Below, piece by piece: positions 1 to 24,545 of a stretch of 24,545 bases of DNA. Each line of letters begins with the position of its first letter. Within the stretch, counting starts at the first letter, position 1. The notes beneath the pieces were generated by a model. It searched no databases. It was not told the DNA's origin and saw only the letters and a program-made list of their open reading frames with translations. The DNA comes from a virus (lineage: Duplodnaviria > Heunggongvirae > Uroviricota > Caudoviricetes), in the IMG/VR virus record IMGVR_UViG_2579778797_000010, one strand, 5' to 3'. A program made the position numbers and the translations under genes.

Positions 1-3
1 GGT

Positions 4-486
4 TCAATATTCCAGACAGACTCGCGGTTCATTTAAGCATCCATGCCCGCCCTGAACTCCGGGCACACCGTAAGTAAAATCAGCCACCCACAGCTGGTCA
101 GGACGTTCTGCCACGAACTGACGGTTTACGCGGTCGCCTGCGGCAACGGCTTTCCGGCTGATGGTCGTACGGACCTTTTTACCCCGGAGAACACCGGCAA
201 GTCCCATAACCGCCATGAGACGTGCCACAGTGCATCTGGCCACTCTGATACCTTCCCGTAACAACTGACGCCAGACTTTACGCACACCGTATACCTGGTG
301 ATTTTCATCGTATACGCGCTGTATCTCTTTCTTCAGCCAGTCATCGCGCTGCGCACGGGCACTGCGTTTATCCGGATGATGTCGTTGTTGCTGACAGTGG
401 TAATACGTTGACGGGGCAATATGCAGTTCGCTGCATAGCGGTCCGACCCCGTACTGCTCACGCAGCTTATCCAGCAGTGGCATCAT
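4..486 (-). pseudogene. IS3-family transposase OrfB, truncated (only N-terminal ~139 codons are transposase-like)
   Basis: Translation matches the IS3-family OrfB N-terminus up to QLWVADFTY (first D of the DDE motif), then diverges and stops at 4-6. Confidence 0.8.
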
Positions 487-863
487 TTTTTCCAGAGGCG
501 GTCGAACTCCGCCTTCGCAAAATAAGCGGAAGCCTGGCGAAGGATATCGTTACTGCGGCGCAGTTCACGATTTTCACGTTCCAGCTCTTTCAGACGCTGA
601 CGTTCAGCGGTGGTGAGCCCGCCATCACCGCTTCCGGTATCCCGCTCATGCTGGCGTACCCAGACACGCAGAGTCTCCGGCGTACAGCCAATCTTTGGAG
701 CAATGGAACAAATTGTCGCCCATTGTGAGTCATATTCGCCCTGACTTTCCAGAACCATACGGACTGCCCGTTGACGGACTTCGGGGGAAAAACGAGTATT
801 TTTAGTCATCCTGTTTACCTCTTTCTCAGGGAGTTTAGTCTCCAGGATTCCCGGGGCGGTTCA
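70..863 (-). mobile_element. Partial IS3-family insertion sequence (IS629/IS1203-like), distal part missing
   Basis: Minus-strand terminal inverted repeat TGAACCGCCCCGGGAATCC ends at 863. orfA and orfB overlap at 483-486. orfB similarity stops just after the conserved ADFTY motif near nt 70. Confidence 0.75.
483..809 (-). CDS. IS3-family transposase OrfA (HTH and leucine-zipper part), IS629-like
   Basis: 108-aa [22 protein letters not shown]...[33 protein letters not shown] at 807-809. Ends in GGAAAAAATGATG, where the orfB ATG overlaps the stop (typical -1 frameshift window). Confidence 0.85.
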
Positions 864-2746: not shown

Positions 2747-3157
2747 ATGGCTCAGGCTGCCATTTTTAAAGAAATATTCGATCAAGTGCGTAAAGATTTA
2801 AACTGTGAATTATTTTATTCTGAGCTAAAACGTCACAATATCTCACTTTATATTTACTATTTAGCCACAGATAATATTCACATTGTGTTAGAAAACGACA
2901 ACATAGTGTTAGTAAAAGGACTCAAAAAGGTTGTAAATGTTAAATTCTCCAGAAACAAACATCTTATAGAGACCTCCTATAATAAGTTGAAATCAAAAGA
3001 AATCACATTTCAACAATACAGGGAAAATCTTGCTAAAGCAGGAGTTTTCCGATGGGTTACAAATATCCAGGAACACCAAAGATATTACTATGCCTTTGAT
3101 AACTCATTACTATTTACTGAAAGCATCCAGAAAACTACACAGATCTTACCACGCTAA
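2747..3157 (+). CDS. ydfO: DUF1398-family protein (YdfO/YbcV-like)
   Basis: 136-aa ORF from the internal ATG at 2747 (GGAAGG SD upstream): [30 protein letters not shown]... Position matches ydfO in Qin. Confidence 0.6.
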
Positions 3158-3308
3158 ACCATAACGTCCGGCTTCTCTCACTCCTGAGCCGGACTGCATT
3201 GGTTTAATAAAAACCATCAACAATTGTGATTTAGATATTCGGAACCATTCAAATATAACAAAACCCCGTAAAAACGAGGTTTATGGATAAATTTTATTAT
3301 TGAATACA

Positions 3309-3485
3309 TCAGATTAAATTAATCTTGACATCATAGCTTTCAAGACCCGTCATTTTTTCCCGTGCGGTAAACTGAATACTGGTAACTTCTTTCCCGGTCT
3401 TTTTCTTAAGTTCAATAATTTTTTTTGTTATATATTCAGAAATATCTGCTTCTGCTTTTGTTTTTAAGTTTTCAATATTCATCAT
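3309..3485 (-). CDS. gnsB: GnsA/GnsB-family small protein
   Basis: 58-aa ORF hand-translated codon by codon: MMNIENLKTKAEADISEYITKKIIELKKKTGKEVTSIQFTAREKMTGLESYDVKINLI. Strong AGAGGA SD. Below the ORF-track cutoff. Confidence 0.8.
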   Translation of the reverse strand: MMNIENLKTKAEADISEYITKKIIELKKKTGKEVTSIQFTAREKMTGLESYDVKINLI

Positions 3486-3653
3486 TTCCTCTTTTAGTCT
3501 GTTATGACTTTCCAGTTACACAGTAAGTCGATTATATGGTGCAAACGTGTAAAAGATAAGATGAAACATCGCAATAATCAACATACGATAGTCTAAATTT
3601 TACACAAACAGACAAAGAGAATTTTCCTGAATTATCAATACAATAGCATCAAA

Positions 3654-3884
3654 TCAACTCAAGAGCCTTATTGCTGCTTCCAGAATTTCTTCTGAAGTAA
3701 CATGTCGATCCGCGGCTACATAAATGACTTTATGATCTCCGGTCAGAGATGGAAACCCTGCGGCCATTACAGTAAGGTGTGTTTTTTCGCCATTTGGATA
3801 TTCACGCATGATGGTGTTAACTCCAGTCATCGCTGGCACTACCACTGCTGGTTCAGAGTTAAAAAAAACTATGATTTTTTTCAT
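3654..3884 (-). CDS. Hypothetical protein (76 aa) at the ynfN position between cspI and gnsB
   Basis: ORF 3654-3926 begins at a TTG; first in-frame ATG at 3882-3884 (MKKIIVFFNSEPAVVVPAMTGVNTIMREYPNGEK...). Weak SD. Confidence 0.4.
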   Translation of the reverse strand: MKKIIVFFNSEPAVVVPAMTGVNTIMREYPNGEKTHLTVMAAGFPSLTGDHKVIYVAADRHVTSEEILEAAIRLLS

Positions 3885-3928
3885 GATGTTACCGTAGTAT
3901 GTGAGTATCCATCGAATAGATACCAAGC

Positions 3929-3948
3929 AAAAAAGCTCCCGAAGGAGC
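3929..3948 (-). terminator. Possible intrinsic terminator downstream of cspI
   Basis: Short GC stem GCTCC-CGAA-GGAGC; on the minus strand it is followed by a run of six T. Confidence 0.3.
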
Positions 3949-4155
3949 CTTCATTTTCACTTTTTTAAATCCAACGACAGACGGCTGGCATTTAAGTATT
4001 GTGAAATATTATCAAATGTAATCATCATTGATTTACAAAAGATACATTTTGCCCCGAAAGGATTCATGTCAGAAACATCAAAAGATGATGTTCTATACTG
4101 GGAACCATGACAACACGGGCATCTAAAGTGAATATGGTTTGTAATATTGTCTACC

Positions 4156-4368
4156 TCAAAGCGCCACTACATGAACAGCGGCAGGACCTTTAGGTCCGTT
4201 CTCAATACCAAATTCAACTTCCTGATTCTCAGTTAATGTTTTGAAATCGTTGCTCTGAATTGCTGAGAAATGGACAAACACATCTTTGCTGCCATCTTTC
4301 GGCGTGATGAAACCAAAACCTTTTTCAGGGTTAAACCATTTCACTAAACCAGTCATTTTGTTAGACAT
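4156..4368 (-). CDS. cspI: Cold shock protein CspI
   Basis: 70-aa product [70 protein letters not shown]; ATG at 4366-4368 checked. Confidence 0.95.
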
Positions 4369-4731
4369 AATTATTACCTTTTGAAGAAATTAGCCCTTGG
4401 GCAGAATGGTCCGAAAAAAAATATCAGAGAGAAAAACCAACAAGGAAATCTCAAGAGGTACAAATAATAAAATTATAACAATGACTGCTTCAGATAAATT
4501 TGTAACAAACCAGAACACCATTAACGCATGATTAACCACCCATAGCAAGGATTACTTTTGTAAAGAAAAACACAGCAATGAAAGAATAGCTTTATTTATT
4601 AATAATAACGTGTCATTCTGATTAAGACCTTTTATCTTACCCTTAAGATTTCAGGAGTTTTGGCTCATGGAAGAGTCCTTTTTATTTAAATTTTACATTC
4701 CGCGATGTAAATGTTCCGATTTAATATTACC

Positions 4732-5755
<1,024 letters not shown>

Positions 5756-5759
<4 letters not shown>

Positions 5760-6067
5760 ATATATTTATGATGAGGACGCTCGTGCTTATTGGCAGGATT
5801 TTCAATCTTAAAGGAGTACTGATGCTGCAGATAAGACTCAACTTTTTCTGACAATTTTTCTGCTACTTCCAGGAAGACTTGCCGGACGCTCCTTCTGGCT
5901 GCTGCCTCATAAAACTCCAGCGCAGCTCCTTCAACACGGTCCATGGCGACATCCAGGTCAAAAATTTCACCGTCAAAGCGTTCTTTGTCCTGTAAGGCTA
6001 CAGTTACCGTAACTTTATTCTCAAAATTACGGACTCCTTTCACAACCAGTTCATAGTCTTGAGTCAT
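5756..6067 (-). CDS. Hypothetical protein between holin and endolysin (YdfR-like, 103 aa)
   Basis: ATG at 6065-6067 with GGAGAG SD, 4 nt after the holin stop; translationally coupled to the lysozyme gene. Confidence 0.6.
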
Positions 6068-6071
6068 TGGA

Positions 6072-6287
6072 TTACTCTCCTCTCGCAGCCTTACGCCTGT
6101 CTTCTTTAATCTTGAAATAAAGATTTGTCAGATACGTCAGCAGGCCAAAAACCAGGCTACCCAGCACACCGATTGCAGCCCACTGTGACGGAGTTACTTT
6201 ATCGAGTAACTGCAATGCCCAGAAACCAGCATTACCCGCCGATGTGCCATAGGCAACACCTGTTGTTAACTTATCCATTGATTTCAT
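6072..6287 (-). CDS. Phage-21 S-type pinholin (class II holin) with dual start
   Basis: 71-aa product [71 protein letters not shown]; ATGs at 6285-6287 and 6276-6278 give the Met1/Met4 dual-start motif. Confidence 0.85.
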
Positions 6288-6506
6288 ATCCTCACCCCGA
6301 TGTACACGGATGGTGCAATATGTTTGAAAAGATCGGAGTCTACGGGGTAGTTTTGACAGCACACGCTGTTCTCAACGGCGCTAAAGAAACATACACATTA
6401 AAAATGTGAGTAATTATTTTGAAAGAAAGTCATATATAAAATAATAATACGAGAAATGTTTTCATATTTAGTGTACTGTATACGGCCATTTATACAGGAA
6501 AAGCCT

Positions 6507-6677
6507 ATGTCAGAACGTAAAGACTCAAAATCACGCCGTAATTATCTCGTTAAATGTTCCTGCCCAAACTGCACCCAAGAGTCAGAACACAGTTTTTCAA
6601 GAGTACAAAAAGGTGCCCTTTTGATCTGCCCTCATTGCAACAAAGTATTCCAGACAAATCTTAAAGCTGTAGCCTGA
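6507..6677 (+). CDS. Small zinc-ribbon protein (56 aa; CPNC...CPHC)
   Basis: Internal ATG at 6507 with an AGGAAAAG SD: MSERKDSKSRRNYLVKCSCPNCTQESEHSFSRVQKGALLICPHCNKVFQTNLKAVA. Confidence 0.5.
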   Translation: MSERKDSKSRRNYLVKCSCPNCTQESEHSFSRVQKGALLICPHCNKVFQTNLKAVA

Positions 6678-6736
6678 TTGATTTTATTAGTAACAAGTAT
6701 TTTTTATATTTTAATAATATATTTAAAGCAGATAAT

Positions 6737-6760
6737 AAAAAACCCGCCTGAGCGGGTTTG
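6737..6760. terminator. Bidirectional intrinsic terminator hairpin (between the zinc-ribbon ORF and cspB)
   Basis: AAAAACCCGC-CTGA-GCGGGTTT: GC stem with A-run on one side and T-run on the other. Confidence 0.5.
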
Positions 6761-7040
6761 AGATTGTGGTGCTTTTTGTGGGAGTCATCCACTTACGCAC
6801 TTTGTTTTGCCATGCCAGCAGTTAGCTTCTGCTGTAAAACTATTCATGCAGCAAACCTGCACTTCACCACAATGGTTAGCATACTTTTCCTGATTAAGAT
6901 TTTGCCAAATATGCTGGCCATTGTTTCATGTATTGGACCTCCTTAATTTTTATTAAAGAAATCCAATATTCACTACTCTGTCCGTATCTCTACTCAGGCA
7001 TCAGCCTTCTTCGTTATCGTATACAGACGAGCGATGAATT

Positions 7041-7256
7041 TTAATCAGTAATGATGACATTTGCTGCTGCAGGACCTTTAGCACCACTCTCTATAGAGAA
7101 GGTAACCTTTTGACCTTCAAATAAGGTTCGATAATTATCATTCTGAATCGCAGAAAAATGCACAAACACATCTTTACTACCATCAACAGGAGAAATAAAG
7201 CCGAAACCTTTATCAGCGTTAAACCATTTTACTAAACCAGTCATTTTATTTGACAT
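7041..7256 (-). CDS. cspB: Cold shock protein CspB
   Basis: 71-aa product [71 protein letters not shown]; start and stop verified. Confidence 0.95.
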
Positions 7257-7556
7257 TCTACATTCCTTAACTTGAGCCTTTCGGCATAAATGGTTTGCAT
7301 AACAGAAACGACTTCGTACTTAATTGGAGAGACTCAAAGAAGGAATAAGTGAATAACACCTGAAATGAGAACTGCTTTAGTAAACTACTTCGTATATCGT
7401 CTGTTCTTCAAACCGACGCAATCATTAACGCATAGTTGAACATATGAAGCAATGTTTATTTTAGACATCCAGCCATCTTCAACCCCATCAAAAAACTATA
7501 GCTTTCTTCAGGAACGTGTGTATAGTGCGCCAAGTTATCAGTATTAAGGAATTTTT

Positions 7557-7769
7557 TTGTCCCGTAAAATGACAGGAATTGTCAAAACCTTTGACGGCAA
7601 AAGCGGCAAGGGTCTTATCACCCCATCCGATGGTCGTATCGATGTCCAGCTTCATGTTTCAGCGCTCAATCTCCGCGATGCAGAAGAAATTACCACCGGA
7701 TTACGCGTGGAATTTTGCCGGATAAATGGTCTGCGTGGCCCTTCAGCTGCCAATGTTTACCTTTCATGA
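7557..7769 (+). CDS. cspF: Cold shock protein homologue CspF
   Basis: 70-aa product [70 protein letters not shown]. First codon is TTG (7557-7559) with AAGGA upstream. Confidence 0.85.
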
Positions 7770-7823
7770 GCTATATTAAAGCTTTAATTTCAGGCCCCAT
7801 CGGATCACACATGGAGAGTTTTT

Positions 7824-7913
7824 ATGAATAACCCCGTCTGTCTTGATGACTGGTTGATTGGCTTTAAAAGCTTATGCTGTACTTTGGCCGTAATAGCTCT
7901 GCTAATAATATAA
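7824..7913 (+). CDS. Hypothetical 29-aa hydrophobic peptide downstream of cspF
   Basis: ATG at 7824 five nt after GGAGAG; hand-translated [29 protein letters not shown]; lies between cspF and the terminator hairpin. Confidence 0.3.
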
Positions 7914-8057
7914 TAAGCAGACTCATTGTGTTTAGGGACATTGTACTGGAAGAAAACATTTTAAACATCAGGCAAATAACCAAGTCACCAGCTAAATAAT
8001 AAGTTAACAGACATGAGTCCCGGGATGAGATTCAACATTACCATTGCCCCATTTAAA

Positions 8058-8095
8058 GCACAAAACCCGCTCATCAGCGGGTTTTCTACTTTTTC
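8058..8095. terminator. Bidirectional intrinsic terminator (cspF 3' end; tR'-like for the leftward late transcript)
   Basis: AAAACCCGC-TCATCA-GCGGGTTTT hairpin with T-runs on both strands. Confidence 0.55.
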
Positions 8096-8130
8096 TTAAC
8101 GTCGGGTATACAAAGCCCATCATTGAAAAA

Positions 8131-8159
8131 ATTTTATCCATATTTTTTGAAAAATGCAA
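8131..8159 (-). promoter_or_regulatory. Candidate late promoter (pR'-like) just downstream of Q
   Basis: Minus strand reads TTGCAT, 17 bp, TAAAAT; lies ~35 bp after the Q stop and ~50-70 bp before the terminator hairpin. Confidence 0.35.
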
Positions 8160-8190
8160 ACATCATGTCGCCATCTTCAGCAAAAATCAT

Positions 8191-8943
8191 TTATCTCGTC
8201 ACCTTCCTCAATTGCGCTTCCGCGTATGCTTCTTCCTGCCAGCACTTTGTTACCAGTTTACCAATGACGTCCGCATACCCCTTATACCACTGATAATCGG
8301 TCAGGTCTGGTACCAGCTTCTGGACATGACGTCGTGCCAGCGTGGTCGGTAAACGACTAAACCGGTTTCCATTACAACGCCCACAAATCTTATATACCGG
8401 TACGCCATGAAACCGGGTTCTTTTTTCATCCAGAACAATCCCTTTACCCTTACACCCTCTGCACGCTGTGCTGGCTTCGCCCTTACCATGGCAATGCTGA
8501 CATAGTTCCTTCACCCATTCTTCCTTGATTACAGATTCCCCGCGTCTGTAGTGTTTCACCACTTCGCGCAATACATTATAAAATCCCGTACCTGAACAAT
8601 GCTCACAGCGAGCCTTACTTGCCGCAGACCTGGAGTAATCAGCAAAGGCAAAACTCACGAGGTAAGGAATAATCTGTAACCGGATTTCTTCACTCAATTT
8701 GTTCAATGTCGGGTTATCCAGTGCCATCGCGTAATTTAGCAGGCCTTCAATCGCAAACTGAGGGTCCTGAACACCAACTTTTGCCAGAAATAAGGCCAAC
8801 CCAAGTGGTGCTTTCGACTGCACCATCCCCTGCGCTGCCATTACATCCGTAATTGTTAAACAACCGGTGCCTGTCGCTGGAGCGTCATCGCTCAATTTTG
8901 GAGATTTTGGGGAGTAATATTTTGGTAAGGCTTCAAGGTTCAT
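8191..8943 (-). CDS. quuQ: Late-gene antiterminator Q (QuuQ-like)
   Basis: 250 aa from the ATG at 8941-8943 (MNLEALPKYYSPKSPKLSDDAPATG...), Cys-rich zinc-binding region (CEHCSGTG, CQHCHGKG, CRGCKGKG, CGRCNG). Confidence 0.9.
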   Translation of the reverse strand: MNLEALPKYYSPKSPKLSDDAPATGTGCLTITDVMAAQGMVQSKAPLGLALFLAKVGVQDPQFAIEGLLNYAMALDNPTLNKLSEEIRLQIIPYLVSFAFADYSRSAASKARCEHCSGTGFYNVLREVVKHYRRGESVIKEEWVKELCQHCHGKGEASTACRGCKGKGIVLDEKRTRFHGVPVYKICGRCNGNRFSRLPTTLARRHVQKLVPDLTDYQWYKGYADVIGKLVTKCWQEEAYAEAQLRKVTR

Positions 8944-18056: not shown

Positions 18057-18115
18057 TTTTCTGGTGACGTTTGGCGGTATCAGTTTTACTCCGTGACTGC
18101 TCTGCCGCCCTTTTT
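18057..18115 (+). ncRNA. dicF: DicF small RNA (ftsZ/cell-division inhibitor sRNA)
   Basis: TTTCTGGTGACGTTTGGCGGTATCAGTTTTACTCCGTGACTGCTCTGCCGCCCTTTTT matches DicF as I recall it, including the terminal GC hairpin and U-tail. Confidence 0.85.
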
Positions 18116-23676: not shown

Positions 23677-24545
23677 GTAAGCGTGCAGCAAGAACCGTAT
23701 TGACGGGGATGTGTTATTCAGTCGGCAGTGCTACGCGCCAGGGGAGCAGTTCGCCGACCCGGTTTATCGGCCAGTCGGCTATGACGTCAAGGACATAGCG
23801 GAGGTAGCTTTCTGGCTCCACTCCGTTCAGTTTGCACGTCCCGATCAGGCTGTACAGCAGCGCTCCCCGCTCTCCTCCATGATCCGAACCGAAGAACAGG
23901 TAGTTTTTGCGGCCCAGACTGACCATCCGCAACGCATTTTCAGCGATGTTATTGTCCGCCTCAGCCCAGCCATCATCTGCATAGTACGTCAGCGCCGGCC
24001 ACTGGTTCAGGGCGTATGCGAACGCTTTCGCCAGTTCTGAGTGTCGCGACAGGGTTTTCATCTTTTCACGCAGCCAGCTTTCCAGGGATTTCAGCAGCGG
24101 TTTCGTTTTCAACTGACGTTCGGCAAGGCGCTGCTCCGCCGTCATTCCCCTTATCTCTGCCTCGATGGCGTACAGTTCGCCGATCCGTTTCAGCGCTTCC
24201 TCCGTCAGGGCTGACGGGGTGCGAACGTGCACATCGTGGATTTTACGGCGGGCGTGAGCCCAACAGGCGGCTTCCGTTATCCGGCCATCCCGGTACAGCT
24301 CGTTGAACCCGGCGTATGCATCCGCCTGCAGTACACCACTGAACCCCGCAAGATGGGTCTGCGGATGGATGCCTTTTCTGTCCGGGCTGTAAGCGAACCA
24401 CATCGCCGGCGCCAGCGTTGACCCGGCGTTACGGTCGTCACGAACGTAGGTCCATAACCGCCCGGTCTTCGTTTTCTTATTGCCTGGCAACAGCACCGGG
24501 ACAGGCGTGTCATCAGCATGGAGCTTACCGTCAGTCAGCACATAG
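23677..24545 (-). mobile_element. IS66-family insertion sequence, one end (continues beyond window)
   Basis: Terminus GTAAGCG at 23677-23683 ~30 bp beyond the transposase stop; TnpC reading frame runs to the window edge. Confidence 0.7.
23714..24545 (-). CDS. IS66-family transposase TnpC, C-terminal part (partial, runs off window)
   Basis: 275+ codons with the IS66 C-terminal region ([18 protein letters not shown]...[12 protein letters not shown]...[55 protein letters not shown]). Confidence 0.85.

Follow-up and report, generated by a model that had tools for sequence, protein, structure and literature searches.

ynfS, an annotated small-protein gene of Qin-like lambdoid prophages, belongs to a fixed cspF–ynfS–terminator module and is predicted to encode a membrane peptide

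Organization of the cspF–ynfS locus

The stretch of DNA analysed here (24,545 nt in full, hereafter the window) is a lambdoid prophage of Qin-like type. In the 6 kb aligned with K-12 its identity is 99.8%, and across positions 864–23676 it is 99.9% identical to strain STEC409. Following the annotation of matching genomes, its gene order begins with integrase, xis, exo, ydfD, dicB and DicF, and continues through the immunity region and the replication genes to relBE, hokD, rem and ydfU, after which come Q (ydfT, minus strand), a hairpin, and ynfS and cspF (plus strand). Beyond these lie cspB (minus strand) and ynfU (plus strand), then the holin, ydfR, lysozyme and rzp genes (minus strand), followed by cspI, ynfQ, ynfR, ynfN and gnsB, and finally terminase. 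Q and the lysis cassette enclose the moron slot that holds the cspF–ynfS pair, which lies on the strand opposite to both. Compared with Qin of K-12, the prophage of the window is less decayed: integrase, excisionase and exonuclease are retained, as is part of the terminase, and IS629-like and ISEc22 sequences lie at its two ends (Table 1). No complete Escherichia coli genome in the collection searched matches the entire window.

Table 1. Features of the ynfS locus and of its prophage surroundings (window coordinates)
Feature	Position	Strand	Evidence and remarks
cspF, CspA-family cold-shock-domain protein	7557..7769	+	Upstream gene; Pfam CSD PF00313, 77.8 bits; genome annotation
Shine-Dalgarno (SD) sequence of ynfS, GGAGAG	7813..7818	+	Direct sequence reading
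ynfS, 29 codons, small hydrophobic protein	7824..7913	+	ATG 7824, stop 7911-7913
3′ untranslated spacer, poorly conserved	7914..8061	+	11-12% substitutions plus indels between alleles
Intrinsic terminator: 10-bp hairpin (8062-8085) and T-run	8062..8095	both, probably	Terminator scan
Promoter-like site, TTTGCA, 18-nt spacer, TAAAAT	8131..8160	-	Consensus scan, 9/12 matches; just downstream of Q
ydfT/quuQ, Q-family late antiterminator	8191..8943	-	Pfam Antiterm PF03589, 181 bits; annotation; convergent with ynfS
ynfU, zinc-binding small protein	6507-6677	+	Literature-validated; coordinates from near-identical annotated genomes
ynfQ, YmcF paralogue	~3956-4144	-	Literature-validated; coordinates from near-identical annotated genomes
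ynfR, 21 aa, reportedly cold-shock induced	~3888-3953	-	Literature-validated; near-identical annotated genomes
DicF sRNA gene	18059-18110	+	76.7 bits; precedes dicB and ydfD, in keeping with a Qin-type prophage
IS3-family (IS629-like) element	1-863		ALIL frameshift pseudoknot 412-528; terminase gene here in related genomes
IS66-like ISEc22 fragment	23677-24545		rspB at this position in related genomes

The reading frame behind cspF had been described from the sequence as 29 codons opened by an ATG with a well-spaced GGAGAG, ending in a hydrophobic stretch and placed between cspF and a terminator hairpin; all of these features are borne out, the frame lying between the cspF stop codon (7767–7769) and the hairpin (8062–8085). 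The gap between GGAGAG and the ATG is 5 nt (7 nt when counted from the GGAG core), the same SD sequence is found in divergent alleles, and no in-frame start is found further 5′ of the ATG. Such features by themselves are no more frequent than expected by chance, as eight frames in the window start with ATG, span 25–50 codons and have an SD-like core, where composition-preserving block shuffles give 9.2 ± 3.3.

The arrangement of the locus is fixed. The distance from cspF to ynfS (54 nt from the cspF stop codon) is constant in 122 of 122 complete loci, and the hairpin, 148 nt beyond ynfS in the window, stands 143–150 nt 3′ of the gene in 125 of 132 loci. The cspF gene, a 54-nt spacer carrying the SD sequence of ynfS, ynfS itself, a spacer of ~148 nt and the hairpin thus form one module. 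A consensus scan finds no plus-strand promoter-like site between cspF and ynfS, and genomic SELEX has placed RNA polymerase binding in the cspB–cspF spacer, with nothing specific to ynfS. We think it probable, from this organization, that ynfS is co-transcribed with cspF from a promoter region between cspB and cspF, that its translation would start at its own SD sequence, and that the transcript would stop at the hairpin.

On the plus strand the hairpin is followed by CTACTTTTTC; read on the minus strand it is CCCGCTGATGAGCGGG, followed by TTTTGTGCTTT. It is invariant across alleles. The geometry of the locus indicates that the hairpin probably acts in both directions, ending the cspF–ynfS transcript and serving as the late-operon terminator tR′, and the position of the minus-strand promoter-like site relative to Q and the hairpin suggests that site as a candidate pR′, the late promoter. 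If the hairpin is indeed bidirectional and is tR′, Q-modified late transcription would cross both ynfS and cspF in antisense. The hairpin stands ~45 nt downstream of the promoter-like site (8160 to 8131), and the two together resemble a pR′–tR′ pair that would yield a transcript of ~60–70 nt. A sub-threshold isrK-like Rfam match (18.8 bits) covers 8060–8126 on the minus strand.

At gathering threshold, the Rfam matches in the window are limited to ALIL, DicF and the thermoregulators of cspB and cspI, and none of them falls on ynfS or its 3′ spacer; relaxed E-values added, near ynfS, only sub-threshold, terminator-driven matches such as those to isrK, Leu_leader and P9. Full-length matches to the cspA thermoregulator, covering 5′ untranslated regions together with coding sequence, are found on the minus strand at 7025–7417 (cspB, 158.8 bits) and 4129–4514 (cspI, 112.8 bits). 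The corresponding match at cspF reaches just 14 bits, below threshold, which suggests that cspF does without a long cold-shock-type leader such as cspB and cspI have.

The convergence of this unit with Q, with only the hairpin between them, would also suit a leader-type reading frame whose translation controls read-through of the hairpin, antisense into Q, as an anti-Q device. One of the sub-threshold matches, to Leu_leader, spans 7932–8088 (18 bits, E = 0.74), far short of the 50 bits set as its gathering score. Against such a device, ynfS ends 148 nt ahead of the hairpin, and no other part of the module is as poorly conserved as this spacer; RNA folding of 7760–8100 is ordinary (z = −1.57), and sequestration of the SD sequence is not claimed. 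Nor would a pure leader require the peptide itself to be kept with conservative changes, as it is (see below). We therefore regard control of read-through by ynfS translation as very improbable.

Identity and expression of ynfS

On the evidence of sequence identity, the frame is ynfS, an already annotated small-protein gene of Qin-type lambdoid prophages. It is identical in all its nucleotides and in its translation to ynfS of MG1655 (b4750, YP_009518791.1; NC_000913.3, 1642122–1642211), which that record places within 'cryptic prophage Qin', and the match extends over 411 of 411 nt across positions 7700–8110, that is, the gene with its flanks. Neighbours (cspF 5′, ydfT/quuQ convergent 3′) and prophage type are likewise shared with K-12, and the gene itself shows no difference. 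When positions 7500–8200 were compared by megablast with complete E. coli genomes, each of the top matches had an annotated coding sequence separating cspF from ydfT, and PGAP calls the same frame in hundreds of genomes as the hypothetical protein WP_120795389.1. The peptide matches the Pfam family PF23697 'YnfS' with 80.9 bits (cutoff 27; E = 4.7e-23), its residues 1–29 aligning on profile positions 1–29. An exact-sequence look-up finds it on at least 1000 contigs under the UniRef name 'Protein YnfS'; the UniProt entry of the K-12 protein is YNFS_ECOLI.

The preliminary description was therefore right to propose a genuine small hydrophobic-peptide gene in a prophage moron unit and mistaken in calling it unannotated: besides b4750, the PGAP protein and the Pfam family, the gene has carried the name ynfS since 2018, and it was not missed. 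Annotation of the locus in phage records is inconsistent. The PhiR63_1 record gives, instead of ynfS, an overlapping 41-aa frame in another reading frame (3051–3176, equivalent to window 7874–7999, plus strand), and in the HannyBb record the region is crowded with over-called tiny minus-strand frames.

Published work shows that YnfS of K-12 is translated from its native locus. In the study of VanOrsdel 2018, ynfS (cspF/ydfT, 1642122–1642211, the same 29 aa) is among 36 small open reading frames that gave a specific immunoblot band as chromosomal SPA fusions, and it was also positive in tetracycline-inhibited ribosome profiling (TetRP) (PMC6001520). Weaver 2019 detected YnfS-SPA again, in stationary-phase LB samples, and reported 'strong start peaks' for ynfS with both retapamulin and Onc112 (bioRxiv 10.1101/511675). 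The ribosome-profiling data sets to which the preliminary description had pointed are thus positive, with TetRP, Onc112 and retapamulin signals in addition to the SPA tagging (PMC6001520; bioRxiv 10.1101/511675). Further mentions are as one of the uncharacterised Qin genes in a 2024 y-ome survey and in a gene-expression cluster table of a transcriptome paper on fluoride exposure. In the searchable literature we found no function, localisation, fractionation or transcript map for ynfS.

It is this identity with an experimentally detected protein, and not the sequence pattern, for which we count ynfS as a gene. An unexpressed frame that arose by chance would be compatible with sequence features that lie within chance expectation, but it is contradicted by the SPA immunoblot and by three kinds of ribosome-profiling signal obtained with the identical K-12 sequence, and it can be set aside as scarcely credible. 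As the gene was named and annotated, has its own Pfam family and had its translation shown in 2018–2019, its value as a discovery is small and its interest as a new finding is low.

Distribution and conservation of the frame

Of 5426 complete E. coli genomes, 1406 contain a 331-nt region around ynfS with a coverage of ≥80%, in most cases at ≥99% identity; a second allele class shows ~92% identity. The gene is also carried by at least four distinct sequenced lambdoid phage genomes (PhiR42_1, HannyBb, PhiR63_1 and 2H10) and, according to a pattern scan of IMG/VR, by at least 120 contigs. A degenerate pattern for codons 6–15, run against the species representatives of GTDB, matched only E. coli and Shigella flexneri, and a few Salmonella entries occur in the YnfS protein cluster. 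As judged from these matches, ynfS is confined to Qin-like lambdoid (pro)phages of Escherichia, Shigella and, rarely, Salmonella. No ynfS-like frame follows cspH, the chromosomal paralogue of cspF, where homology stops at the csp stop codon.

The 29-codon frame is free of stops and frameshifts in all 122 complete loci, drawn from genomes, phages and IMG/VR contigs. Disruption of the frame in Qin-like relatives, which the preliminary description had named as the observation that would speak against the gene, is thus not seen, and the outcome favours a gene. These 122 loci encode seven peptide variants, one of them with the start codon changed from ATG to ATA.

ynfS is nevertheless dispensable in nature, as deletion and IS1-insertion alleles exist. 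A 258-nt deletion (window 7759–8016), found in some strains, such as JNEC-KY208 and A31, takes away 11 nt at the 3′ end of cspF, the whole of ynfS and the greater part of the 3′ spacer, so that the hairpin is fused to a cspF pseudogene. Several genomes carry an IS1A element inside ynfS, with the match to the query resuming at ~7894. Such natural deletion and IS1-disrupted alleles provide ready-made comparison strains.

Two further arrangements were noted. In one IMG/VR locus cspF has a premature stop (Q31 to stop) next to an intact ynfS. In the phages HannyBb (5425–6978) and PhiR63_1 (3425–4978), ~1.55 kb of extra DNA separates the ynfS hairpin from Q. Two copies of a ~140-bp region comprising the 3′ end of Q and the promoter-like site flank this DNA, in which there is a 94-aa plus-strand frame whose C-terminal tail is hydrophobic; tRNA genes are absent from it.

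Sequence variation and selection

Pairwise divergence between allele classes is 2.2–4.4% in ynfS, compared with 5.6–9.3% in the upstream spacer and 11–12%, plus indels, in the downstream one. The lower substitution density of ynfS relative to its flanks is a modest effect (Fisher p 0.01–0.08). Nine sites segregate within the gene, eight of them nonsynonymous; the single synonymous site falls in the codon 6–15 core, and all eight sites outside the core are nonsynonymous. The tests for selection are underpowered, because there are only nine segregating sites and because the search pattern itself fixed codons 6–15, so that the core was pre-selected in the loci sampled. Within residues 11–29, each of the 12 distinct variants is a conservative change (A22, for instance, becomes T, G, V or S), and they bring in neither a charge nor a proline (P = 0.07 under random substitution). 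This variation suggests that the peptide may be under selection; purifying selection, on the other hand, is beyond what the ynfS polymorphism data can show.

The main rival to a functional peptide is that ynfS is translated and has no selected function, being a young frame in AT-rich moron DNA behind cspF that happens to have a good SD sequence. The narrow range of the gene (Escherichia, Shigella and sporadic Salmonella) agrees with this explanation, as do the absence of a paralogue behind cspH, the existence of deletion and IS1-disrupted alleles, the ATA start codon at one locus, and the equal frequency of frames with SD-like cores in shuffled sequence. Outside the core, moreover, the ratio of eight nonsynonymous to zero synonymous sites is what would be expected in the absence of amino-acid constraint. 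Against it, 121 of 122 loci retain the frame, the SD sequence and the start codon despite spacers that differ by 6–12% with indels, the variants of the hydrophobic segment are all conservative, and the gene is found in at least four sequenced lambdoid phage genomes. On this evidence we consider a translated frame with no selected function rather unlikely, although it is the most serious of the alternatives.

Predicted properties of the YnfS peptide

YnfS consists of a polar, acidic N-terminus of 10 residues followed by a hydrophobic C-terminus of 19. The mean Kyte-Doolittle value is 2.46 for residues 11–29 and 3.14 for the last 11 residues, and the GRAVY of the whole peptide is 1.47. The hydrophobic segment 11–29 is predicted to be long enough to span a bilayer, with K15 inside the predicted helix. 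PF23697 is the sole Pfam match; searches of NCBIfam and PADLOC gave zero matches, and the sole PHROGs match (13.8 bits) is to a family of unknown function.

Two assignments were considered and rejected. YnfS is not a lipoprotein: it has no lipobox ([LVI][ASTVI][GAS]C), C18 and C19 being preceded by KSL and SLC, with neither an n-region nor an h-region before them. Nor is it a holin or other lysis-cassette protein, as ynfS is on the plus strand and the holin, endolysin and Rz genes (~4731–6287) and Q are on the minus strand.

These properties suggest that YnfS may be a single-pass inner-membrane peptide whose helix, residues 11–29, would reach the C-terminus and leave the short acidic N-terminus outside the membrane, and we hold this topology to be somewhat better than an even bet. 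The most likely product of the gene would then be a predicted single-pass inner-membrane peptide made in the lysogen, a view to which we lean with similar, limited confidence.

The preliminary description pointed out that small membrane peptides of prophage morons are often toxins or regulators. YnfS, being short and having a predicted hydrophobic helix, might on that view be a membrane-damaging toxin, part of a unit resembling type I toxin–antitoxin or abortive-infection systems, and hokD and relBE are present in the same prophage; the analysis nevertheless gave no support for a toxin. A weak minus-strand promoter-like site (7934 to 7905) would, on that explanation, give an antisense RNA to ynfS. 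The site scores 9/12, and such sites number six against 3.3 ± 1.8 in shuffled sequence, a difference that is not significant; its −35 element is altered in 2H10-type alleles, and there is no minus-strand terminator-like site where the antisense RNA would be expected to end. As the only minus-strand candidate for an antisense promoter, it was rejected as weak and not conserved. No toxin family is matched in Pfam, PADLOC, NCBIfam or PHROGs, and an Rfam antitoxin RNA is absent. In growing LB cultures, YnfS made from its native locus can be detected, and it gives strong initiation peaks, unlike tightly repressed type I toxins. A toxin is accordingly improbable. Comparison with known type I toxins (the Hok/Gef group including hokD, Ldr, Ibs, TisB and ShoB) leads in the same direction: YnfS resembles them in being short and hydrophobic and shares its prophage with hokD, but unlike them it lacks a match to any of their families, a conserved antisense RNA and a long structured leader, and it is detectable in growing cells.

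A non-toxic membrane peptide is favoured because YnfS lacks a lipobox and any toxin or defence match, because Rfam RNAs and a conserved antisense promoter are missing from the locus, and because the protein can be detected in growing cells. Taken as a whole, the explanation that we adopt with high confidence is that of the known gene ynfS, part of a fixed module, with a proposed membrane peptide of the lysogen as its product.

Relationship to known systems and possible role

In E. coli, the small proteins AcrZ, MgtS, MgrB, CydX and KdpF reside in the inner membrane, where they modulate larger membrane proteins. YnfS resembles them in belonging to the class of ~30–50 aa, in its single predicted hydrophobic helix, in having its own SD sequence and in its detection by SPA tagging; it differs from them in that it has no sequence kinship with any of them, is prophage-borne and taxonomically narrow, and has a helix that reaches the very C-terminus. 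Extrapolating from most characterised bacterial small membrane proteins, YnfS, if it acts at all, may bind a larger membrane protein in the lysogen and cause no membrane damage, a tentative proposal to which we give a little less than even weight.

Membrane proteins encoded by other morons have also been reported to protect the host. By analogy, YnfS might be a lysogen-expressed membrane moron that protects its host, for example by blocking the entry of superinfecting phage DNA through binding to an inner-membrane protein; we regard this role as unlikely. Within the same prophage, DicB is reported to block phage DNA entry via an inner-membrane protein (PMC6832061). After induction, Q-driven late transcription would run antisense across ynfS, so that, were YnfS a host-protecting moron, induction would switch it off.

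Lambdoid morons are also known between Q/pR′–tR′ and the lysis genes, as exemplified by stx in Stx phages, and the cspF–ynfS and cspB units similarly occupy the slot between Q and the holin gene. In contrast to stx-type morons, cspF–ynfS runs opposite to the late operon and ends in a terminator of its own, an arrangement that would preclude its expression by Q-dependent read-through. For later work, the points of use are that a fixed cspF–ynfS–terminator module resides in the Q-to-lysis slot of Qin-like phages, sequenced phages included, and that ynfS is oriented antisense to the late operon.
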